Origin: an uncultured Candidatus Saccharibacteria bacterium
Lineage (GTDB): Bacteria; Patescibacteriota; Dojkabacteria; B142; OLB20
DNA length: 64,000 bases
Reading direction: 5' to 3'
Assembly: GCA_964461915.1 (NCBI GenBank)
Contig: CAYWVD010000002.1
Location: 47,789 to 111,788 of the forward strand
Below the pieces are notes generated by a model that saw only the letters and a list, made by a program, of their open reading frames with translations, did no database searches and had not been told where the DNA came from. Both the position numbers and the translations under genes were made by a program. This document shows positions 6,832-57,413 of this stretch, one piece after another (the first letter of the stretch is position 1; every line of letters starts with the position of its first letter).

Positions 6832-9800
6832 TTAAAAAGCTGATTCTGCCATTACGGGCATAACTTCTTTCTTGTTTAGAGCAATAGATAAATCTGAGAT
6901 ACTGCCATCTCCAATATCCATTACTTTAGTACCATCAGCTAAGGTTATTAAAGAAGATGAATCAACCAGCTCATAGCCAGGCACTGCTACAGCAAGATAA
7001 TATGAACCTTTTGCTAGTCTAAACCCGAACCTTCCTTTTTCATCGCTTAATTGAAGTTCAATTTGCCTGCTTTGCTCTTTATTAAATATTCTTAAAAAGC
7101 CTCCCTTAATCCTTTCTCCAGTTTGCTGATCAAAAATATATCCCCAATTTCTTATCGGTTTTACAAAAATTAGTATTCCCAGATGAATAATATAAAAAGC
7201 TAAAACAATTAGATTAAAGGCTGAGAAATTAAATACTAGAGCAATCACACTCAATGTCAAACCAACAATCCCAATAACCCAGCCTAATCCTGTTAACATT
7301 TTTTGAGCTAATTTTTTTATATTGAAAGCCGCAGGTTTCCAATTTCTTTGTAAAGGTACATCTAGAGTTAATTGATCTTCTTTATTAATTACCTTTACCT
7401 CTTTATTGTATTTCGAGTAGTCAGAATGCAGTACTTCCATTTGGTAATTACCTTTATCTAAAATGAATGAGTATTTTCCTTCCAGATCAGTAACACTTTG
7501 CTTAATGAGCTTACCATCAGAAAATATTCTAATTATTGCAAAAGCCACAGGAACATGATTTTGAGCATCATAGACAATTCCCCAAGGCTTTTTCTTCTTT
7601 CTGGGCAAGAACCAGATAAACCCATAAATTAAAAATTTTGGGCTTGTAAAAAGCACAGGTATAAAGACCATGCTTAATCCAATCAAAGCTAAAGCAATAG
7701 AAAAAGTCCCGATCAAAACTCTGTTTTGATTAGAGAATAATCCAACCTCTTCAAGCATTGGTGCTAAAGTCTTGGCAGAAATGACATCTGAAGCGCTACA
7801 TTGATTCACAACAGATACACAGCTCACCTTATAATAAACATCGAGCGCATTATTAAAACCAATATCCATTAAGGCTTTAAATGAGGAAGCGTAGGGAGTA
7901 ATTTTTCCAAAGGCATCCATTCTTTGGGGATCATTTCCATAATTAAGAGTGCAATAGGTAGTGTTATCTGTACTAAAAGTAAATGAAACATTACCTTCAG
8001 GATCCAAAGCATAATCACGATTTAAATAGACATGACATTGTGAGTAATATTCGATATGATTGATCTCGAAATTGCCAAAGTAACTATCAAGATATTCTCC
8101 ATATTTAATGTTTATCTCAAAGTCGTAAGGGGTGTCATACTCAGCATCACTAATTAAAATACAATGATCAAGCAACTTTGCTTCGGTTTCAGGTAAAGTA
8201 ATTTTATCCATCATTCCTCTTTTGCCATATTTGATAACACCTTTGGAAGGGGCGTTGCTATCCCAACAAATCTCAATATTGCCATCATCTGTACTAGTTC
8301 TTACATTAATTATTTCCAGTTCGAAAATACATTCACCATCATCAGAAACATATATGCACTTTTGATCTGGGGTGGGAGTAGGTACGGGAGTAGATGGTAC
8401 TGCCGAACCGGTAACGGAAGGACTTATTGTTATAGTCGCCGGTGGGGTTGCTGTGGGGGAAATTGATGGTGCAACGTAACTACACTGGCCCACATCATAA
8501 TTACAACTCTCATAACAGCTTAGATCTCCAGAATTGTATCCGGGGAAACTACTACACTCAAATCCACCCAAATTAATTCCATCGCATTGTTCACCTTCAT
8601 CAATGATTTCATTTCCGCAAGCTGGCGTATAGGGAAAGGTATAGTTCATCGCTCCCATACTTTGGGTTAATCCCTCCACCATCCAATAATCATTGCCATC
8701 ACTTCCAGTAACAATAGAAACTTTAGGATCCAGATCAGAAACTATTTTTGCTCCAGCACAAGTCTCTGATACATCTAGAATGCTTTCAGCTAAAGGACAA
8801 AGTAGTAGATAGTCTGAAGGATCACTTTCTAATATCGGTACCATTAGATTATAAGCACCAAGAGCCCCAGGCTCTGCACTAGGATCGTCAATAAATACTT
8901 TTCCTTCTACCATATCTACTTCTCCACTTAGATTTGTCCAGTCATGATTAGCATTAAAAAGCACTTCAACTTTGGCCATTATCATAGAATCGTCATCATC
9001 TATTACATATATCCCTCTTTCTCCTACCTGTTTAAATCTCGTGACATCCATATCTAAATTCGAGATTAGAGTAGCTCTTAAATCATCATCTAGGCTTAAT
9101 AAATACCCATCAGCCTCTCCTACATATGATCCCATAGGATGATGCCAACCTTCATTAGGCTCGACCCATTCACAATTATTCATCCCACCAACTGGACTAC
9201 GAACTAACCAGCACGCCCTTGAAGAGTCTCCATTATTCTGACAGATGGAGTATTCCTCATTCATATTTGCCTGACACCAAGCCCAGCATACTTGCCAATC
9301 TTCAAATATCCCTAAACCAGGCATTCCATAGGGAATCGTTCGGGCAATATCTCCATGATTAGAACACCAAAAATCTCCCGAAGGAGTATCATCTTTTATT
9401 GAATAAATAATTGGTCTATTACGGAAAGTAATATTCATATTTACATTTCTATTACTAATATCTAACACCCTGAAGTAATACGTTGTATTAGGAAGAGCTT
9501 GAAAGGTAAGGAAACTAGTTTGATCTTGCCAATTACAAGACCAGTTAGCATCTGAACCATTTGTTGCCCAATCATCGTTTTCGGCTAGCAAGATTAAATC
9601 ATTAACAGAAGAGCCAGTATAAACACTTAAAACAGTATCTACTCGCCAACCAAACTTATTACATGTATCTATCCATACTTCACGCGATATTGAATCATTC
9701 GTCCACTTCCACCATAAGGTTCTGGGATCCATTGCATATTTAGATGCATCTGGTTCACCATCCTCCATAGTAGCATTCCTAGTTGTGTTTATAATATAAG

Positions 9801-11283
9801 GTTTATAGTCACCATACTCATCAAGCATATCCAATTCTATCTCAGTAGAATCGATAAAATTATCATTCTCAGGAGGCCCTTCATAAGGCACTTCCTCATA
9901 TAAATCTAGCTTAAACCATAGTGGTAATAGGTCATTATATTCAATAAGGTTTCTGATAGATACTTGAATATAGTAGATGGAATTTTCAGTGACAGACATA
10001 AAAAGCTTAGCTCCCTCATTATGACAGCCTAGTTGGTTATCAATAACTTTTGTTAGATTAGTCAACTGCGATCCCATATAGACTGCAATTACAGTATCCA
10101 TATCGTCAAACTCCATATCACAAGTCCCAATTGAGATGTCTGTATCATAGGGAGCTGTAAACTTCCACCAGACGGAATTAGTAGATGAATATTTATCATA
10201 TATTAAAGAGGTCGGTTCATCTATTTGAATTGTGGAGTTTTCCAAAATCCCATTACTATAACTGCTTTCATTAAGTCCAATCTCTATAGCATTCTCAAAA
10301 TCATCATTGTTAATTGAAGGCTCATCTGTTGGAGTTACTGTTGGAGTTACTGTTGGAGTTACTGTTGGTTCTGTATTATATAGGTAAGTATAAAAAGCAG
10401 CAGCTCTATTCTGTGTTCCAGTTAGCATTAAATAGATCCTATCGGTATCAAATATAACATCACTTACTGTTTCGGATACTGTAAGACTATCAACATAGTT
10501 AAAGGTATCATCATAAATTTTTAGGCCAGGCACATAAAGATCTAGGACATAAACATAACCGGAGCTATCCACTGCCAATTTCCAAGGATATTCTATTTCA
10601 TCTGCAAAGCTACCTTCACTTGCGGCACAATCATTCAGGTTACAATAAAAGACCTGAGACACACCAAAAGAGGATTCCATATTTAAAACAAATAATCTTG
10701 GCTCAGCACCTGAAGTATCTATCTCAACATCAACAGGATTTGAAATTAACGAGGAGTTGGAATAAATTGAGACAGTACTATTAGATAGATCAACCCTATA
10801 TATTGTATTGGAATTTTTTCCAACCACATAAACAAATCCATCGTAATATGTTAATCCCCGGATTCTAATATTCGCTCCAACAGGAGCGATATCATAGGTA
10901 TCTATAATATTTAAATTACTATCAAAATGCATGACGCTATCTGATTCTGACCCAATAACAGAAGCAAAGACATCACCACTATCTGATACTGCTAAGCCAT
11001 TAAGTTCAGGAATAAGAGTATCCGTAGATACCTGAAAAACACCACCACTATCGAATTTATCGATTTTAGAATAGTCATAATTGAAAATATAAAGATTACC
11101 TGATGCATCCCTATCAAATTCCTTGAAATAAGAGCTATTATCTTCTAATACAACTGTTCTATCTAAATCTGAAACTATCTCCGCCTCTATCTGTTTATAA
11201 CTAGTAAATGTTAAGACTAGAATAGAATAGATAGGTAGAATGATTAACAATATGCTTATCACATTATGGGGTTTGAACTGCAT
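6832..11283 (-). CDS. Giant (1483 aa) membrane-anchored surface protein with beta-propeller-like repeats, a TPTV linker, a Cys-rich module and CarboxypepD_reg-like domains
   Basis: It has an N-terminal TM and a (TPTV)n linker encoded by 15-nt tandem repeats near 10321-10380. There are Cys-rich segments and two prealbumin/CarboxypepD_reg-like domains (GIVYDAQNHVPVAFAIIRIF..., GYIFDQQTGERIKGGFLRIF...) interleaved with TM helices. Confidence 0.75.
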   Translation of the reverse strand: MQFKPHNVISILLIILPIYSILVLTFTSYKQIEAEIVSDLDRTVVLEDNSSYFKEFDRDASGNLYIFNYDYSKIDKFDSGGVFQVSTDTLIPELNGLAVSDSGDVFASVIGSESDSVMHFDSNLNIIDTYDIAPVGANIRIRGLTYYDGFVYVVGKNSNTIYRVDLSNSTVSIYSNSSLISNPVDVEIDTSGAEPRLFVLNMESSFGVSQVFYCNLNDCAASEGSFADEIEYPWKLAVDSSGYVYVLDLYVPGLKIYDDTFNYVDSLTVSETVSDVIFDTDRIYLMLTGTQNRAAAFYTYLYNTEPTVTPTVTPTVTPTDEPSINNDDFENAIEIGLNESSYSNGILENSTIQIDEPTSLIYDKYSSTNSVWWKFTAPYDTDISIGTCDMEFDDMDTVIAVYMGSQLTNLTKVIDNQLGCHNEGAKLFMSVTENSIYYIQVSIRNLIEYNDLLPLWFKLDLYEEVPYEGPPENDNFIDSTEIELDMLDEYGDYKPYIINTTRNATMEDGEPDASKYAMDPRTLWWKWTNDSISREVWIDTCNKFGWRVDTVLSVYTGSSVNDLILLAENDDWATNGSDANWSCNWQDQTSFLTFQALPNTTYYFRVLDISNRNVNMNITFRNRPIIYSIKDDTPSGDFWCSNHGDIARTIPYGMPGLGIFEDWQVCWAWCQANMNEEYSICQNNGDSSRACWLVRSPVGGMNNCEWVEPNEGWHHPMGSYVGEADGYLLSLDDDLRATLISNLDMDVTRFKQVGERGIYVIDDDDSMIMAKVEVLFNANHDWTNLSGEVDMVEGKVFIDDPSAEPGALGAYNLMVPILESDPSDYLLLCPLAESILDVSETCAGAKIVSDLDPKVSIVTGSDGNDYWMVEGLTQSMGAMNYTFPYTPACGNEIIDEGEQCDGINLGGFECSSFPGYNSGDLSCYESCNYDVGQCSYVAPSISPTATPPATITISPSVTGSAVPSTPVPTPTPDQKCIYVSDDGECIFELEIINVRTSTDDGNIEICWDSNAPSKGVIKYGKRGMMDKITLPETEAKLLDHCILISDAEYDTPYDFEINIKYGEYLDSYFGNFEINHIEYYSQCHVYLNRDYALDPEGNVSFTFSTDNTTYCTLNYGNDPQRMDAFGKITPYASSFKALMDIGFNNALDVYYKVSCVSVVNQCSASDVISAKTLAPMLEEVGLFSNQNRVLIGTFSIALALIGLSMVFIPVLFTSPKFLIYGFIWFLPRKKKKPWGIVYDAQNHVPVAFAIIRIFSDGKLIKQSVTDLEGKYSFILDKGNYQMEVLHSDYSKYNKEVKVINKEDQLTLDVPLQRNWKPAAFNIKKLAQKMLTGLGWVIGIVGLTLSVIALVFNFSAFNLIVLAFYIIHLGILIFVKPIRNWGYIFDQQTGERIKGGFLRIFNKEQSRQIELQLSDEKGRFGFRLAKGSYYLAVAVPGYELVDSSSLITLADGTKVMDIGDGSISDLSIALNKKEVMPVMAESAF
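10321..10380 (-). repeat. 15-nt tandem coding repeat (actgttggagttact x ~4) encoding the TPTVTPTV linker inside the giant surface protein gene
   Basis: The repeat is visible directly in the sequence. Confidence 0.8.
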
Positions 11284-53749: not shown

Positions 53750-54121
53750 CTAATTACCCTTAGGTAATGCTTCGCAGGCTTCTCCATCGTTGTCGCCGTC
53801 TAGACCATTAGTGTCTTGGCTAGGGCCACCGGCATTTTTAAAGAAAGTTTGTGCTTGTTCTTTGGTTGTGAAGTCATCACAGTTATATTCGTCAGTATAC
53901 TTTCCGCCACTTTCTACAACGTTTCCATTGATGTCTCGCATTACTTTAGAATTCTCCCATGATTCACCGCTTAATAGCTTACCGATATCCCAATCGTTGT
54001 TTGTAGATTCCAATCCAAGGGCCGCTAAAAGGATGACTAAAATACCGCCAAAAACCCAAGTTAAGATTTTTTTAACTTTAGGGCTAGAATTAGCTAATTG
54101 TTTTAGTTTTGGAATTGCCAT
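53750..54121 (-). CDS. Secreted Excalibur (extracellular Ca-binding) domain protein
   Basis: It has an N-terminal signal/TM and the C-terminal Excalibur signature DGDNDGEACE (DxDxDGxxCE). Confidence 0.65.
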   Translation of the reverse strand: MAIPKLKQLANSSPKVKKILTWVFGGILVILLAALGLESTNNDWDIGKLLSGESWENSKVMRDINGNVVESGGKYTDEYNCDDFTTKEQAQTFFKNAGGPSQDTNGLDGDNDGEACEALPKGN

Positions 54122-54336
54122 AATTATTTATAAAACAGAATAAAATAAATAAGCTACAACTAAGATCAGTAAGATGATTACCACCAATCTGACTATTTTA
54201 TTTCCTGTAATTTTATTCATTTATTAAACTATAATAGTTAATTTTATAATGCCCTTTGAGTATTTAAAAGTCAAGGGAACCAATATATTCACAGGACAAG
54301 TTTTCACTTGAAGTGTTGGTACTTAAACTGTAAAAT

Positions 54337-54609
54337 TTGAGTATGAAAATTTTGAAATATTTATTAGCAATATCATTAGGTTTGTTGGGAAATATTGCCC
54401 CCATTTCGGCCATGGGCGTTTCTACCTTTGTCTCCCTATATGGTATGGCTCCTATTCGTGTGGCCTCTGATTTAGATTTTATTCATGAATTAATTTTAAA
54501 GATAGTGTTGTTTCTGTTCTTTATTGCTGCATTTATTACCGGTATAATAGTTTTAATAAAGCGCAGATCAAAGAAACCAGTCTCAAAAAATACTAAAATT
54601 AAAAAGTAA
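54337..54609 (+). CDS. Small membrane-anchored peptide, paralog A (signal peptide, LYGMxP motif, TM, KK-rich tail)
   Basis: 90 aa. It is paralogous to the next ORF. Both share LYGM.P and LFFIAxxITGxxV. Confidence 0.5.
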   Translation: MSMKILKYLLAISLGLLGNIAPISAMGVSTFVSLYGMAPIRVASDLDFIHELILKIVLFLFFIAAFITGIIVLIKRRSKKPVSKNTKIKK

Positions 54610-54616
54610 TTTCTTT

Positions 54617-54895
54617 ATGAAAAAGAAAAATCTTATTAAATACTTAGTTGCCTTTGTCTTAGTGTTTATCTCTAACTTTGGAGTTGTTTCAGCTGGCAGC
54701 GCTTTGCCAACAATGATCCTTCTGTATGGAATGCAACCAACTTATGTACCGGTTAACGAAGGCATACTACAACTAGTTCAATTTAGATTATTTATCTTCT
54801 TATTCTTTATAGCCTCACTCATCACGGGAGTAGTTGTTTTCTTTACGCGTAAATACAAAAGTAACAATAAAAAGAATGCTAAAAAAAATCCTTAA
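54617..54895 (+). CDS. Small membrane-anchored peptide, paralog B
   Basis: 92 aa with the same architecture as 54337..54609 (LLYGMQPTYVPV, FLFFIASLITGVVVFF, and a KK tail). Confidence 0.5.
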   Translation: MKKKNLIKYLVAFVLVFISNFGVVSAGSALPTMILLYGMQPTYVPVNEGILQLVQFRLFIFLFFIASLITGVVVFFTRKYKSNNKKNAKKNP

Positions 54896-55949
54896 ACTCG
54901 GGAGACAAAAACTCTGGACAGTCCACAGAGACTTAATAATTGACAAACACGATTTAAGTTATCTGTTTTGGGAAGCTACCCTTAATTGTAACTTCCGTTG
55001 TAAACATTGTGGAAGTCGCGCAGGAGAAAAAGTTTTCAAAGAAGTCGTTTCAACTGAAAAAATTAAGGAAGCATTTTTGGATGTCTCAAAGAACTTTGAA
55101 GCCAAAACAATAAATATTGCTGTAACTGGCGGTGAACCGCTTTTAAGAAAGGATCTTTTCGAAGTCATGAAATATGCAAGATCCCTTGGATTCCACTGGG
55201 GAATGGTTTCTAATGGCTTTCTTTGGACCGAAGAATTTATTGAAAAAGCTAAAGACGCAGGAATGGAAACAATTGATATAAGTATTGACGGGATTGGTCA
55301 AATACATGATGAATTCAGAAATACAAAAGACGCTTATAAAAGAGCGATTAATGCCGTTAAACTATTAGCAAAAGGCCAATTCTTAAAACACCTTCGGATC
55401 TCTACGACTGTTCACAAAAAAAATATCGATTCTTTAGAATATATGTACAATGAATTTAAAAATTTAGGAATTACCGGCTGGAGACTCATCCATGTTGATC
55501 CAATAGGCAGAGGTTTTTGCAATAAAGAAATTCTATTATCAAAGGACGAAACTATCAAAATGCTTGATTTTATTGTAAAAAAAAGAAAAGAAAAATCGCC
55601 CGTCAAATTAAGCACAAGCTGTGCGCACTTTCTTGGAGAAGACTACGAAGACGAAGTAAGAGATCATTTCTTTTTTTGCGCAACAGGAATAAATGTTGGA
55701 AGCATCCTACATAATGGAGACATTTTTGTTTGTCCGAATGTTCCAAGACGTAAAGAATATATCCAAGGCAATATATTAAAAGATTCTTTCTCTGAAATTT
55801 GGAATAACAAATTTCAAATTTTCCGGGATAAAAATCGTTTATTAAATGATAAATGTAAAGACTGTGAGCACTGGGAAGAGTGTTTAGGTGGAGCTTTCCA
55901 CACCTTTGACCCCGACGATAAAAAACAACAAGTTTGCTTGATGGATTAG
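54876..55949 (+). CDS. Radical SAM enzyme with a C-terminal SPASM domain
   Basis: CNFRCKHCGS is the Cx3Cx2C motif near the N-terminus. The C-terminal Cys cluster (CAHF...FFFCATG...FVCPN...CKDCEHWEECLGGAFH) is typical of SPASM/twitch auxiliary clusters. The start is taken at MLKKIL. Confidence 0.8.
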   Translation: MLKKILKLGRQKLWTVHRDLIIDKHDLSYLFWEATLNCNFRCKHCGSRAGEKVFKEVVSTEKIKEAFLDVSKNFEAKTINIAVTGGEPLLRKDLFEVMKYARSLGFHWGMVSNGFLWTEEFIEKAKDAGMETIDISIDGIGQIHDEFRNTKDAYKRAINAVKLLAKGQFLKHLRISTTVHKKNIDSLEYMYNEFKNLGITGWRLIHVDPIGRGFCNKEILLSKDETIKMLDFIVKKRKEKSPVKLSTSCAHFLGEDYEDEVRDHFFFCATGINVGSILHNGDIFVCPNVPRRKEYIQGNILKDSFSEIWNNKFQIFRDKNRLLNDKCKDCEHWEECLGGAFHTFDPDDKKQQVCLMD

Positions 55950-55951
55950 TT

Positions 55952-57373
55952 CTAATTAGATTTAGATTTTTTTGCATCGATGCGTTGATCGGTAGTTATT
56001 TTTTGAGTAAAGAATCTTTGTTGAGGGTCTAGATTAGGAGGCTTCCCCATTGATAAAAGAGCCTCGTCAGTTAAATAATATGTAACAGAAAAACTCTGTG
56101 GAGATTCTAAAAATACTTTAAGATCGTTAACTAATTTTTGCAACCTTTCTATACCCAAACTTGTTCCTGCTAGTTCAAAGGTATTAGAAAAATTAGCGAC
56201 TGGAATAACATCTTCACCCTGTTTCGATGGCAAAGAAATCTGAAAATAACTTAGGGTTACACTCTCATTATCAATATTATTTAAGCGTTCAGTTCTTTCT
56301 ACAAACTTGATATAAAACGACGGCTTTTCAGGATCTTTGCTTGGTACTTCAATTGTCATTATTCCACGCATATTAGGGATACTCTCTTGAATTTTACTTT
56401 TTAATATACTCAGTAGATCCATCACTTCAAAATTTATTTCAGCAGGAATTACAGAAAAATTTTTTCCTTCTCTTCCTGGAATACCAACTTCAATTCCTTC
56501 TGTCACATCAACTATTTTTTTGTCAGCAAAAACCCTTCCCATTAATAAAAATCCTAACCTATCACTTAATCGATAATCTTCTATTGGTGGCTTTCTATCA
56601 GACACTGCTTCATTTACCGGTATTGGACTTGCTGAAAGTTTAATTTTATTCGTACCATTTATACCTGTTAATGTTCCCGAATATCTACTCAAAACAAACG
56701 GTTTCTTACCAGGGGAGATAGCTTGTACTGATAATGTGACCTCATTACTAGCACTTTCAGTAATCACAACCTCGGTAGCACTAAACTCAACTAACAAATC
56801 ATCATGAAATTGTAAATGTGAATTTGGAATAAAAAAACGACTTTCATACTTCTCTGGTTCTTTTGTATTTGGATTGATGTTCATTACCTGTCTAATTGAG
56901 AAGCCATCGCCTAGGTCGGTATCTCTGACAATAGATAGTATCGGCCTTTTCCTTACAGGCCCAACTAAATTAAATGTTATCGATTCCAAATTGGGGTCTT
57001 CTGGAACTAATGTTATCCCATAACCATTGTTTGTAAGATAGCGTTTATATTTTATATCACCAATATCAACCACGCTGACCTCTTGGACATTACCATTAGG
57101 GCTATTTCCATCCTGAAATTCCTTTACTCCAAAACCATTTTCCAAATAAGAAAAGTTAGCAAGTAATTGTCCACTTGTATCTATAGACTCAAACAATCCT
57201 TTATATTGAGTAATATCTCTTCTAAATAAACCTCCTGGGACAGTGGGAATTATATCACCCAGGGGTTTTCCACTTACTAAATCTATTAAAGGTAAATTAT
57301 CCTGAATAGGAGAAACATACTCTGTTGAAAGTCTTGCATCAACTACACCTTCAATATTTATTGGTTGAATCAT
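55952..57373 (-). CDS. Hypothetical soluble 473-aa protein
   Basis: A long ORF with no TM, no signal peptide and no motif I can name. Confidence 0.5.
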   Translation of the reverse strand: MIQPINIEGVVDARLSTEYVSPIQDNLPLIDLVSGKPLGDIIPTVPGGLFRRDITQYKGLFESIDTSGQLLANFSYLENGFGVKEFQDGNSPNGNVQEVSVVDIGDIKYKRYLTNNGYGITLVPEDPNLESITFNLVGPVRKRPILSIVRDTDLGDGFSIRQVMNINPNTKEPEKYESRFFIPNSHLQFHDDLLVEFSATEVVITESASNEVTLSVQAISPGKKPFVLSRYSGTLTGINGTNKIKLSASPIPVNEAVSDRKPPIEDYRLSDRLGFLLMGRVFADKKIVDVTEGIEVGIPGREGKNFSVIPAEINFEVMDLLSILKSKIQESIPNMRGIMTIEVPSKDPEKPSFYIKFVERTERLNNIDNESVTLSYFQISLPSKQGEDVIPVANFSNTFELAGTSLGIERLQKLVNDLKVFLESPQSFSVTYYLTDEALLSMGKPPNLDPQQRFFTQKITTDQRIDAKKSKSN

Positions 57374-57413
57374 GTTTTCTGTATTGCGTTTTTAAACCAA
57401 TCTGATTGATTTA

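Follow-up and report, generated by a model that had tools for sequence, protein, structure and literature searches.

Tyr-Gly membrane mini-proteins paired with a radical SAM/SPASM enzyme in Patescibacteria: candidate substrates for a splicease-like reaction

What might a radical SAM/SPASM enzyme be doing directly behind two tiny membrane proteins in a member of the Patescibacteria, whose genomes are very small and whose conserved small membrane proteins mostly have no assigned function? The question is raised by a 64,000-nucleotide stretch of DNA (the window) from an uncultured Candidatus Saccharibacteria bacterium. The original prediction, made from this stretch, described two tandem paralogous membrane peptides of 90 and 92 aa, the second overlapping by 20 nt a 357-aa radical SAM ORF with a Cx3Cx2C motif and a SPASM Cys cluster, and read the layout as peptide precursors plus a maturase. 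The peptide pair is present as described, and Pfam bears out the description of the enzyme. The genes and the site preceding them are as follows.

54308..54336, + strand: promoter-like site TTGAAG-17-TAAAAT, abutting the sORF1 start and agreeing with 9 of 12 consensus positions
54337..54609, + strand: sORF1, a YG-motif membrane peptide, 90 aa from TTG 54337
54617..54895, + strand: sORF2, a second YG-motif membrane peptide, 92 aa
54876..55949, + strand: radical SAM/SPASM enzyme, 357 aa from ATG, with Pfam and NCBIfam matches

Gene callers place the sORF1 start at ATG 54343 (88 aa) in three independent assemblies, and both small ORFs are called and identical in three such assemblies with differing flanks. 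The two peptides are paralogues (35% identity over 74 aa, E = 2e-7), and the overlap of the last 20 nt of sORF2 with the start of the enzyme gene suggests translational coupling. A scan for promoters and terminators gave nothing above shuffled expectation (11 such promoter-like sites in the region against 8.1 expected), so the site upstream of sORF1 is a candidate promoter only. Excalibur-domain, peptidase S51 and Ham1-like proteins are encoded next to the enzyme gene, alongside unknowns, and neither a sulfatase nor a C/S-x-P-x-R motif was found near it. Judged from their sequences, the three genes may form a self-contained two-component protein-modification operon, an explanation that, with its chemistry included, we consider about equally likely to stand or fall.

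The pairing recurs across many genomes. Relatives of the enzyme are encoded in 532 species genomes. Linkage was assessed at 34 loci of the Patescibacteria type, the window included, with enzyme orthologues at 44–69% identity (tblastn). Beside the enzyme gene, 30 of the 34 loci carry one to four same-strand ORFs of at most 180 aa, each with a transmembrane segment and a YG motif, and reading TGA as Gly (genetic code 25) adds two further loci, which brings the total to 32 of 34. In one code-25 locus, the Gly codon of both YG motifs is TGA. These per-locus counts use the looser of two filters, because the stricter one, which requires an N-terminal hydrophobic segment, undercounts signal peptides. 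At locus L006 the homologous peptide carries HYLAP in place of YG, and at locus L015 no peptide was found beside the enzyme gene; on an additional contig beyond the 34 loci, six YG-transmembrane peptide genes lie in tandem. Throughout, the peptides share an architecture of signal peptide, X-Tyr-Gly motif, transmembrane helix and Lys/Arg tail. In the reverse direction, a profile built from 26 peptides retrieved 15 database proteins, all unannotated, and all four of the matches examined adjoin a gene with Radical_SAM and SPASM domains. The co-occurrence in other Patescibacteria that the original prediction proposed as a check is thus found from the enzyme side and from the peptide side, and the precursor-plus-maturase layout is that of a conserved pair whose adjacency is not due to chance.

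The two partners also degenerate together. In a relative with 79% enzyme identity, Cys45 of the CX3CX2C motif is lost (CKHYGS) and the peptide has an in-frame TAA immediately before LYGPAP; both lesions are present in two assemblies, and enzyme and peptide have decayed jointly. No further conserved gene joins the pair: all-against-all BLASTP clustering of ORFs of at least 100 aa from the 34 loci yielded only antisense artefacts within the enzyme gene, and no conserved protease, PCAT transporter, immunity gene or PlpY-like gene was found around the module.

We then asked which part of the peptides is held constant. Each sORF has an N-terminal Sec-type hydrophobic segment and a Leu-Tyr-Gly motif (SLYGMAP in sORF1, LLYGMQP in sORF2), and both have a C-terminal transmembrane segment with LFFIAxxITGxxV followed by a Lys-rich tail. 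Pfam and NCBIfam scans of the two gave no significant family match.

54436..54444, + strand: codons CTA TAT GGT for Leu34-Tyr35-Gly36 of sORF1, the proposed X-Y-G modification site (from sequence and family alignment)
54490..54558, + strand: C-terminal transmembrane helix of sORF1, about residues 52–74, ILKIVLFLFFIAAFITGIIVLI (from hydrophobicity of the translation)
54722..54730, + strand: codons CTG TAT GGA for Leu36-Tyr37-Gly38 of sORF2, the proposed modification site (from sequence and family alignment)

Across an alignment of 26 peptides with a mean identity of 27%, only the Tyr and Gly columns are invariant. The 34-locus set contains 67 YG motifs in 47 peptides; Tyr is preceded by L (37), A (8), M (7), E (5) or K (5), among other residues, and Gly is followed by P (29), V (16), M (6), I, S, A or T. 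The motif occurs in 55 of 158 ORFs adjacent to the enzyme gene compared with 3 of 74 distal ORFs, and in only 3 of the 33 other transmembrane-containing ORFs of 60–180 aa in the window; the expectation for the dipeptide in the window's genome is ~2.5 per 1,000 residues. Together, the alignment and these counts indicate that YG is a selected feature of the peptides. Behind the motif, the family alignment has a conserved helix of the TLWEKIL type, and within the transmembrane segment one glycine is kept in at least 90% of sequences (alignment A3, 26 peptides); in sORF1 this nearly invariant residue is Gly69, and a Lys/Arg-rich tail follows. With signal-peptide cleavage and topology assigned by eye and by the positive-inside rule, YG is predicted to face the exterior on an anchor that stays in the membrane, and the product resembles a modified mini-protein of the cell surface, not a released RiPP.

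The enzyme belongs to the radical SAM superfamily (Pfam PF04055, 77.7 bits against a cutoff of 29.5) and to its SPASM subgroup (PF13186, 39.6 bits against 21.5). Three of its regions are listed below.

54876..54947, + strand: basic amphipathic N-terminal helix, residues 1–24, MLKKILKLGRQKLW..., helical over residues 2–24 in the model
54987..55010, + strand: radical SAM [4Fe-4S] motif C38-x3-C42-x2-C45, invariant in alignments A1 and A2
55620..55937, + strand: SPASM auxiliary-cluster region with Cys249, 268, 286, 327, 330, 336 and 354 and the invariant His342

The radical SAM motif sits in a conserved block, YLFWE.TL.CN..C.HCGS. In the SPASM region, with the spacings C268-x12-G-x4-C286 and C327-x2-C330-x5-C336, seven Cys are conserved in A1 and five remain invariant in A2; where C-x2-C-x5-C-x3-C usually has its fourth Cys, the enzyme family has Ala or Ser throughout. 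The N-terminal helix is kept among Patescibacteria orthologues and could serve in substrate or membrane docking or as a built-in activating helix. An AlphaFold2 model (pLDDT 86.3) has SkfB, anSME and SuiB, all peptide- or protein-modifying SPASM/twitch enzymes, as its nearest solved folds; the fold search returned generic SPASM/twitch peptide maturases only and does not tell their chemistries apart, and the PDB held no solved splicease or close homologue of the enzyme. The 120 closest homologues share 53–99% identity and include sources named Peregrinibacteria, Moranbacteria and Paceibacterota, and the source names at lower-scoring loci include Saccharibacteria and Gottesmanbacteria.

Family scores narrow the possibilities. 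The enzyme is neither a sulfatase maturase (anSME, TIGR03942: 71.8 bits against a cutoff of 349, and no sulfatase in the neighbourhood) nor a cofactor enzyme (AhbD: 159 against 500), the two assignments that would have been at odds with the original prediction. It also falls below the cutoffs for NirJ (141 against 515), MftC (123 against 265), PqqE (97 against 381), the SCIFF maturase (68 against 425), PapB (94 against 340) and SkfB (79 against 300). Sactipeptide and ranthipeptide chemistry is excluded, as had been argued from the start, because neither sORF contains a Cys for thioether formation.

The best NCBIfam match is TIGR04133, which aligns over the full length at 291.1 bits. TIGR04133 (rSAM_w_lipo) and TIGR04134 (radical SAM-associated putative lipoprotein) are an NCBIfam 'hypothetical equivalog' pair. 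The earlier statement that the combination is not a recognised system therefore needs correcting, as the module is related to this 'radical SAM with lipoprotein' pair. Because the window enzyme stays under the TIGR04133 cutoff of 425 bits, which enzymes from Bacteroidales and Treponema pass at ~458 bits, we place it, from sequence comparison, in a Patescibacteria sister clade and not within TIGR04133 itself. The Bacteroidales and Treponema enzymes are 37–41% identical to the window enzyme, and with it and the enzymes of other phyla they form one family tree of three clades.

Partners in the other clades keep the motif in a different setting. In Bacteroidales and Treponema they are lipoproteins with lipobox-CYG[MTA]P; TIGR04134 gives weak matches to the two Bacteroidales lipoproteins tested and does not match the short Treponema lipoprotein. 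Nor does it match sORF1 or sORF2 (cutoff 39.8 bits), both of which have no lipobox Cys. Myxococcota partners are lipoproteins with up to ~10 LYGPPPD repeats, Planctomycetes have the motif PAYGPAPAYGP, and Nitrospirota ALYGPAALYGPVALYGPPP. Our literature search found no paper on TIGR04133 or TIGR04134, the sole match to TIGR04134 being a misprinted accession of a type IX secretion domain.

A motif of this form points to the tyramine spliceases. These are radical SAM/SPASM enzymes that act at X-Y-G sites in which Y and G are fixed and X is variable, the native X being Met or Leu (PMC11414181, PMC10533398, PMC11626197, PMC9811515). Helper-free binary systems exist (PMC11414181), and the natural products and roles of the modification were still undescribed in 2022 reviews (PMC8868522, PMC9811515). 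As expected of a spliceotide locus, a radical SAM/SPASM gene here stands beside precursors with a conserved X-Y-G (LYG in both sORFs), and, as far as the alignments indicate, the conservation of X-Y-G in the window family is the tyramine splicease pattern. PlpX of Pleurocapsa, the sequence of which was obtained via the contig of PlpA3, aligns with the window enzyme over 328 aa at 30% identity (E = 5e-39), and the block WE.TL.CN..C.HCGSRAG is common to the two; the PlpA cores AAMYGVVFP and RPLYGLPI resemble SLYGMAPI and LLYGMQPT of the window. This alignment indicates that the enzyme is homologous to PlpX, more distantly than to TIGR04133. It is not a member of the PlpX family TIGR04103, in which it scores 120.8 bits against a cutoff of 725 and PlpX scores 824. 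Of four family enzymes scanned, three have TIGR04103 as their second-best NCBIfam match, the window enzyme not being among the three, and sequence alone does not place the clade beside the spliceases, because TIGR04133 is only the fifth-best family for PlpX. In spliceotide systems an activating helix comes from a Y protein or from the leader of the precursor; no PlpY-like gene was found here, and the helix behind YG in the peptides and the N-terminal helix of the enzyme are candidates for such a helix. Speaking against splicing, in Bacteroidales the X of X-Y-G would be the lipidated Cys itself, an odd splice substrate. In the literature covered, we found nothing on Patescibacteria SPASM enzymes or on spliceotides that carry signal peptides.

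We propose, with middling confidence in the explanation as a whole, that the YG peptides are substrates that undergo tyramine-splicease chemistry before Sec export. The precursor of ~90 aa would consist of a Sec signal, a Leu-Tyr-Gly-Met-x-Pro segment, an amphipathic stretch, a transmembrane helix and a Lys/Arg-rich cytoplasmic tail, and the cytoplasmic radical SAM/SPASM enzyme would act on its X-Tyr-Gly while it is still unfolded and not yet exported. A splicease-type reaction would excise Tyr except for its carbonyl carbon and link this retained carbon with the Leu carbonyl ahead of it, with a net loss of C8H9NO; given the X-Y-G pattern, the mass shift to expect would be −135.06 Da, not −2 Da. 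The modified precursor would then be inserted into the membrane and lose its signal peptide, leaving a tiny type-I membrane protein with an outward segment of ~25–30 residues that bears an electrophilic ketoamide. Speculatively, such a protein could trap or inhibit Ser/Cys hydrolases while tethered to the surface, or could offer a reactive handle on the cell envelope of these episymbiotic bacteria. A cytoplasmic step that modifies precursors with signal peptides ahead of Sec or lipoprotein processing has precedent (PMC13056109).

The alternative that survives best is that the enzyme acts on the YG peptides by another chemistry, such as a Tyr-centred C–C or C–O cross-link (for example, a Y-G-X cyclophane), epimerisation, hydroxylation, or conversion of Tyr into a peptide-derived redox cofactor in the manner of PqqE or MftC. 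We regard this as possible, though on the doubtful side. Consistent with it, the enzyme lies outside the characterised splicease family, and AhbD (159 bits), NirJ (141) and MftC (123) score slightly above TIGR04103 (121), with PqqE at 97; the Cys pattern of its auxiliary clusters differs from that of PlpX, and SPASM enzymes that alter Tyr by different routes are known, for example PqqE and MftC (NCBIfam names). However, an invariant middle Gly with a variable third residue does not fit the three-residue cyclophane motifs; of the aromatic Y-G-M cyclophane site first suggested for this locus, Y-G is borne out and the cyclophane is made less likely. MftC targets a C-terminal Val-Tyr and PqqE targets Glu-x3-Tyr, and neither context is present in the window peptides. 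To our knowledge, moreover, X-Y-G with a variable X is known solely as a splicease site (cf. PMC9811515, PMC11414181).

It is unlikely that the small proteins are membrane partners or anchors of an enzyme that acts instead on a lipid, a cofactor or another protein. Such a role would suit peptides that are mostly transmembrane and whose nearly invariant helix Gly suggests helix packing, as well as an enzyme whose conserved basic amphipathic N-terminal helix could lie on the membrane and whose next-best family matches are AhbD and NirJ. Yet the only invariant peptide residues, YG, are in the segment predicted to face outwards and therefore offer no docking site for a cytoplasmic enzyme after insertion. 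Other phyla keep YG in soluble lipoproteins or YG-repeat proteins without a transmembrane anchor, the number of motifs per partner (from 1 to ~10) suits a substrate better than a stoichiometric partner, and all cofactor-family scores are far under their cutoffs.

Quite improbable is a classical secreted RiPP, in which the YG segment would be freed from its signal and its transmembrane anchor and diffuse away as a bioactive peptide, for example a protease inhibitor or bacteriocin. Characterised spliceotides count as RiPPs whose ketoamides inhibit proteases (PMC11626197), and a short ectodomain is releasable in principle, but the neighbourhood has no conserved protease, PCAT transporter or immunity gene. 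The transmembrane helix, its Gly and the basic tail are kept across the family, which points to a functional anchor, and at least 53% identity among the 120 closest enzyme homologues is unexpected for an accessory antibiotic locus. Finally, although the sORFs are small, hydrophobic, of low complexity and without a Pfam or NCBIfam match, the idea that they are spurious or accidentally adjacent to the enzyme has a negligible chance of being right and is ruled out by the comparative data, as they are paralogous, are called identically in three assemblies, have family members next to the enzyme gene at 32 of the 34 loci and likewise in four of four reverse look-ups, and keep YG through a change of genetic code.

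The module joins a strongly conserved enzyme to hypervariable mini-proteins in which only Tyr-Gly, one transmembrane glycine and a basic tail are kept. Were the enzyme a splicease, electrophilic alpha-ketoamide (beta-amino-acid) residues would be displayed on the surface of these organisms, a native function would be suggested for the modification, the chemistry would extend from RiPPs to membrane proteins, compact helper-free enzymes with short tags would become available for protein engineering, and the long-uncharacterised pair TIGR04133/TIGR04134, found in gut and rumen Bacteroidales and in Treponema, would gain a testable function. A different chemistry would amount to a new radical SAM reaction directed at Tyr-Gly. 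A broader reading, which we offer tentatively and would not bet on, is that Tyr-Gly backbone rewriting is a widely conserved envelope feature that serves episymbiosis in Patescibacteria and possibly also in some DPANN archaea. One to six tandem membrane-anchored proteins would then carry a ketoamide/beta-amino-acid splice, or a wholly new Tyr-Gly radical chemistry, and would covalently trap hydrolases of the host or the environment, or present a reactive handle at the surface, and would not be an accessory antibiotic. This would be the first 'housekeeping-like' splicease-type chemistry and give it a first proposed natural role.

Among known systems, TIGR04133/TIGR04134 is of the same two-gene type, a radical SAM/SPASM enzyme with a small exported protein, and in TIGR04134-type partners (ACYGMP, ACYGTP), as in the window peptides, Tyr-Gly comes directly after the signal sequence. 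Unlike TIGR04134, the window peptides have a signal-peptidase-I-type signal without a lipobox Cys, and a C-terminal transmembrane anchor with a basic tail in place of a beta-rich domain; unlike that pair, peptides of the window type are often in tandem (two here, up to six elsewhere). Triceptide maturases resemble the window enzyme in being SPASM radical SAM enzymes that modify a small precursor, at a three-residue motif with an aromatic residue. In triceptide (three-residue cyclophane) motifs it is the third position that is conserved and the middle position that varies, whereas the window family has an unchanging Gly in the middle and a variable residue after it; no triceptide-maturase HMM was among the 25 NCBIfam matches listed for the window enzyme. 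An anSME acts in the cytoplasm on a protein bound for export, ahead of its Sec transport. The window enzyme is likewise a SPASM radical SAM protein without an RRE domain and has anSME among its closest folds, but its target motif is YG and no sulfatase is nearby.

DAG-RiPP and ChrH/DybH-type systems are two-gene clusters in which a cytoplasmic maturase recognises a short conserved precursor motif, an ordinary SPI or SPII signal acts as the 'leader' and the product stays membrane-associated (PMC13056109). The window module follows the same two-gene logic with a signal-peptide-bearing precursor; their enzyme, by contrast, is a multinuclear non-haem iron oxidase unrelated to the radical SAM protein of the window, and they have a Cys-based CPxCGxG motif and a lipid anchor where the window has YG and a transmembrane helix. 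The differences from the Plp system are a missing fourth SPASM Cys, a missing C-terminal extension of ~70 aa and an N-terminal helix of its own in the enzyme compared with PlpX, a Sec signal and transmembrane anchor instead of the Nif11/NHLP leader of PlpA, and a module without a PlpY-like gene or a peptidase-transporter. The likenesses lie in the site and the layout. As in PlpX/PlpY/PlpA of Pleurocapsa and RhaX/RasX of Rheinheimera, X-Y-G is the only fixed feature of the precursors; as in spliceotides, X is mostly Leu or Met and Gly is followed by a hydrophobic residue or Pro; several precursor genes may accompany one enzyme, as in splicease systems; and, like the binary RhaX/RasX systems, the window module has two components and no PlpY-like helper gene.

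Reading of the window identified three genes on the same strand in 54337..55949. Because both flanking genes lie on the opposite strand, the trio looks like a single small operon:

53750..54121, opposite strand, Excalibur-domain protein, upstream neighbour of the trio
54337..54609, + strand, sORF1, 90 aa if started at TTG (88 aa with the ATG at 54343 as start)
54490..54558, + strand, transmembrane (TM) helix of sORF1, which holds Gly69 (sORF2 has an equivalent helix)
54617..54895, + strand, sORF2, 92 aa, starting 7 nt past the end of sORF1
54876..55949, + strand, radical SAM/SPASM enzyme (rSAM), 357 aa from ATG, sharing its first 20 nt with sORF2
55952..57373, opposite strand, 473-aa ORF with no function assigned, downstream neighbour of the trio

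Gene callers in three independent assemblies picked the ATG at 54343 as the sORF1 start. A promoter-like site adjoins sORF1, although the count of such sites is not above that in shuffled sequence. The two small ORFs are paralogs (35% identity over 74 aa, E = 2e-7): each has a basic N-terminus, a hydrophobic segment with ISA or VSA at its end, the motif SLYGMAP (in one) or LLYGMQP (in the other), a hydrophobic helix containing LFFIAxxITGxxV and a tail rich in Lys, and neither translation contains Cys. The tandem peptides of the original prediction are therefore present with exactly the architecture described, and the identity of the enzyme is borne out by C38-x3-C42-x2-C45 together with Pfam Radical_SAM and SPASM matches. 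All three genes are identical in three other assemblies, in which the flanks differ. In two of these (L082 and L083, compared with window 55950..57400), the 473-aa gene is swapped for others, one of 195 aa among them, so a strain-variable region directly adjoins the module. The only other YG of similar context within the window, IPYGMPGLG at about residue 652 of a very large ORF (6832..11283, − strand, 1483 aa), is probably due to chance.

The best NCBIfam match of the enzyme, over its full length, was TIGR04133 ('rSAM_w_lipo'; E = 9.8e-87), at 291 bits and thus under the curated cutoff of 425 bits. Other families followed with AhbD at 159 bits (cutoff 500), NirJ at 141 (515), MftC at 123 (265), the PlpX (splicease) family TIGR04103 at 121 (725), PqqE at 97 (381), anSME at 72 (349) and SCIFF at 68 (425). 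Identity as anSME or a cofactor enzyme, which the original prediction had named as the assignment that would count against it, was rejected, because these scores fall far under every such cutoff and TIGR04133 ranks first. A confident AlphaFold2 model (pLDDT 86.3, pTM 0.87) comprises a partial TIM barrel and a SPASM domain with a long N-terminal helix (residues 2-24) ahead of them; among solved structures it is closest in fold to SkfB, anSME and SuiB, all of which modify peptides or proteins. The window enzyme has no RRE domain. Enzyme alignments revealed seven conserved Cys in the SPASM region and an invariant His342; of the four Cys in the usual C-x2-C-x5-C-x3-C, the family lacks the last.

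We then considered how widely the enzyme and peptides occur together. The best 120 homologs of the enzyme are 53-99% identical to it, with Peregrinibacteria, Moranbacteria, Paceibacterota and 'Patescibacteria group' as named sources, and a scan of one genome per species returned 532 loci that encode a relative. Among 34 Patescibacteria-type loci surveyed, the window counted in, 30 have, next to the enzyme gene, one to four same-strand ORFs of at most 180 aa that all combine a TM segment with YG, giving 47 peptides and 67 YG motifs. Two loci that first seemed exceptions (L022 and L027) read TGA as Gly, and translation with code 25 reveals a peptide in both (L022:2890-3180 and L027:3690-4000); in-frame TGA codons number 21 in the rSAM gene of L022 and 13 in that of L027. 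Because the Gly codon is TGA in both YG motifs of the L022 peptide, the invariant Gly survives recoding. One locus (L015) yielded no peptide beside the enzyme gene, and another (L006) encodes a peptide of clear homology in which HYLAP stands at the YG position. In this upstream 149-aa ORF (L006:3555-4004), homology to YG peptides lies toward the C-terminus (TFWEKV…TM…RRKKHK) and the N-terminus carries additional TM segments; it may be a family member that has degenerated or diverged.

In the reverse direction, a database search with a profile built from 26 peptides yielded 15 proteins, none annotated and none with a Pfam domain, and all four of the 15 that were looked up directly adjoin a Radical_SAM+SPASM gene. 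Co-occurrence of the peptides with this enzyme subfamily in other Patescibacteria, on which the original prediction depended, is thus found by both routes. We found no other genes conserved around the module in the neighbourhoods of the examined loci. Beyond the 34 loci, six tandem YG-TM peptide genes are present on the L090 contig; in L090:745-4104 and L091:2046-4104, three to six such genes precede the enzyme between rpsP-khpA and trmD, normally a conserved operon region for ribosome and tRNA function, a placement that may point to constitutive expression. An enzyme 49% identical to that of the window is encoded on a contig that bears the label Candidatus Micrarchaeota, among the DPANN archaea (L024:3709-5074), along with a peptide of the typical kind in which YG occurs four times (EYGMIQPLYGVQVKYGVIQPLYGV); this reflects either transfer between Patescibacteria and DPANN or a mis-binned contig. 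Typical Patescibacteria-style YG peptides also accompany enzymes 44-67% identical to that of the window in 'uncultured Gammaproteobacteria' MAGs (L002, L007, L009, L011, L023, L025, L026, L029 and L031); the labels on these third-party assemblies are probably wrong.

In an alignment of 26 peptides, mean column identity is 27%, and Tyr and Gly alone are invariant. Across the 67 motifs, the residue before Tyr is L (37), A (8), M (7), E (5) or K (5) and that after Gly is P (29), V (16) or M (6), among others, with Pro frequent at the next two positions. The background expectation for YG is about 2.5 per 1000 residues, and the extended motif is present in 55 of the 158 ORFs that adjoin enzyme genes versus 3 of 74 distal ORFs. 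Judged from this pattern, Tyr-Gly is a feature kept by selection. One Gly of the TM helix (I-[IT]-G-[IV]; Gly69 of sORF1) is nearly invariant, in at least 90% of the aligned peptides, which suggests helix-helix packing, whether the peptides oligomerise or dock to another membrane protein. Between YG and the TM segment, many peptides share a T-[LF]-W-E-[KR]-[IV]-L helix, of which sORF1 and sORF2 show only a weak form.

The closest divergent relative (L085:2151-3477 and L086:476-1802) encodes an enzyme 79% identical to that of the window, with the radical SAM motif changed to CKHYGS (Cys45 to Tyr), and in the one peptide gene upstream of it an in-frame TAA falls immediately 5' of LYGPAP (…ALPMNV*LYGPAPIQ…). 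Both lesions are present in two separate ENA assemblies, which possibly sampled one population twice. Enzyme and substrate look to have decayed together, adding support for a functional link between them. A non-substrate role for the peptides is very unlikely; the module is, with high probability, an enzyme–substrate pair aimed at YG.

Partners in other phyla keep YG despite entirely different architectures. Those of Bacteroidales and Treponema, whose enzymes score above the TIGR04133 cutoff, are lipoproteins with ...ACYG[MTA]P... immediately past the lipobox; TIGR04134, the other member of the NCBIfam 'radical SAM with lipoprotein' pair, matches the two Bacteroidales lipoproteins tested weakly and the short Treponema one not at all. 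In Myxococcota, lipoprotein partners repeat Q.LYGPPPD up to about 10 times, Planctomycetes partners hold PAYGPAPAYGP and Nitrospirota partners hold ALYGPAALYGPVALYGPPP. A distance tree resolves one family with three clades: Bacteroidales, Treponema and Elusimicrobia; Myxococcota, Planctomycetes and deltaproteobacteria; and Patescibacteria, including the window enzyme. Because YG partners occur across all three, a YG-bearing exported partner is, by this distribution, ancestral to the family, of which the window module is the Patescibacteria variant.

The N-terminal segments of the peptides look like ordinary Sec signal peptides: the n-region is rich in Lys, the h-region spans 12-18 residues and the c-region reads, for example, ALA|Q, ASA|Q or VSA|G. 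A strongly basic tail follows the C-terminal helix, and by the positive-inside rule the tail would be cytoplasmic and the YG segment outward-facing. Microgenomates-type variants have no signal peptide; their YG segment comes first, ahead of two TM helices with a KKK loop between them, and would have the same outward orientation. Given that the radical SAM enzyme is cytoplasmic, it would have to act before peptide translocation; anSME modifies sulfatases at this stage. Another enzyme class modifies signal-peptide-bearing RiPP precursors before translocation (PMC13056109).

As to the reaction, tyramine spliceases are, to our knowledge, the sole radical SAM/SPASM enzymes with X-Y-G-defined substrates. 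PlpX and its relatives excise Tyr and keep C1 alone, at a motif in which Y and G are fixed and X is variable, natively Met or Leu, and binary systems without a helper protein are known (PMC11414181, PMC10533398, PMC11626197, PMC9811515, PMC11002830). A survey that mined genomes for spliceases by YG frequency in neighbouring ORFs reported 27 confirmed and 939 predicted systems (PMC10849128, PMC10533398). We recovered the plp locus starting from the published PlpA3 sequence. PlpX reaches 824 bits against TIGR04103, and its alignment with the window enzyme covers 328 aa at 30% identity (E = 5e-39); both have a WE.TL.CN..C.HCGSRAG block and an invariant His, and the PlpA cores AAMYGVVFP and RPLYGLPI resemble SLYGMAPI and LLYGMQPT of the window peptides. 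On the strength of this likeness and the X-Y-G rule, we propose that the enzyme performs splicease-type excision at Leu-Tyr-Gly of the precursor, which would then undergo Sec insertion and lose its signal peptide, leaving a type-I mini-protein that displays a ketoamide near its N-terminus. The conserved basic amphipathic N-terminal helix of the Patescibacteria enzymes (54876..54947, alignment columns 1-30; MLKKILKLGRQKLW..HREYLR) is absent from PlpX. Spliceases fused by engineering to an activating helix become leader-independent (PMC11414181), and the N-terminal helix might be a natural counterpart.

A different YG-directed reaction is possible, if less likely. TIGR04103 is the second-best NCBIfam family in three of four family enzymes scanned; however, because AhbD, NirJ and MftC slightly outscore it on the window enzyme and TIGR04133 ranks only fifth for PlpX, sequence does not place the window clade specifically next to spliceases. 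The auxiliary-cluster Cys pattern also differs from that of PlpX, and X of X-Y-G in Bacteroidales partners would be the lipidated Cys. For the whole explanation, tyramine excision included, we regard the case as evenly balanced.

Taken together, the finding is real and widespread, and was partly foreseen by NCBIfam curation and splicease genome mining; we found no literature on TIGR04133/4 or on Patescibacteria SPASM enzymes. The module is homologous to the uncharacterised TIGR04133/TIGR04134 pair, resembles anSME in timing and would work like a binary spliceotide system, and its enzyme fails the curated thresholds of both TIGR04133 and TIGR04103. It stands out in several ways: the precursors bear a Sec signal where a RiPP would have its leader, and they keep a TM anchor whose glycine is conserved and whose tail is basic; paralogs are arrayed in tandem; there is no transporter or protease; and the enzyme is strongly conserved across Patescibacteria.
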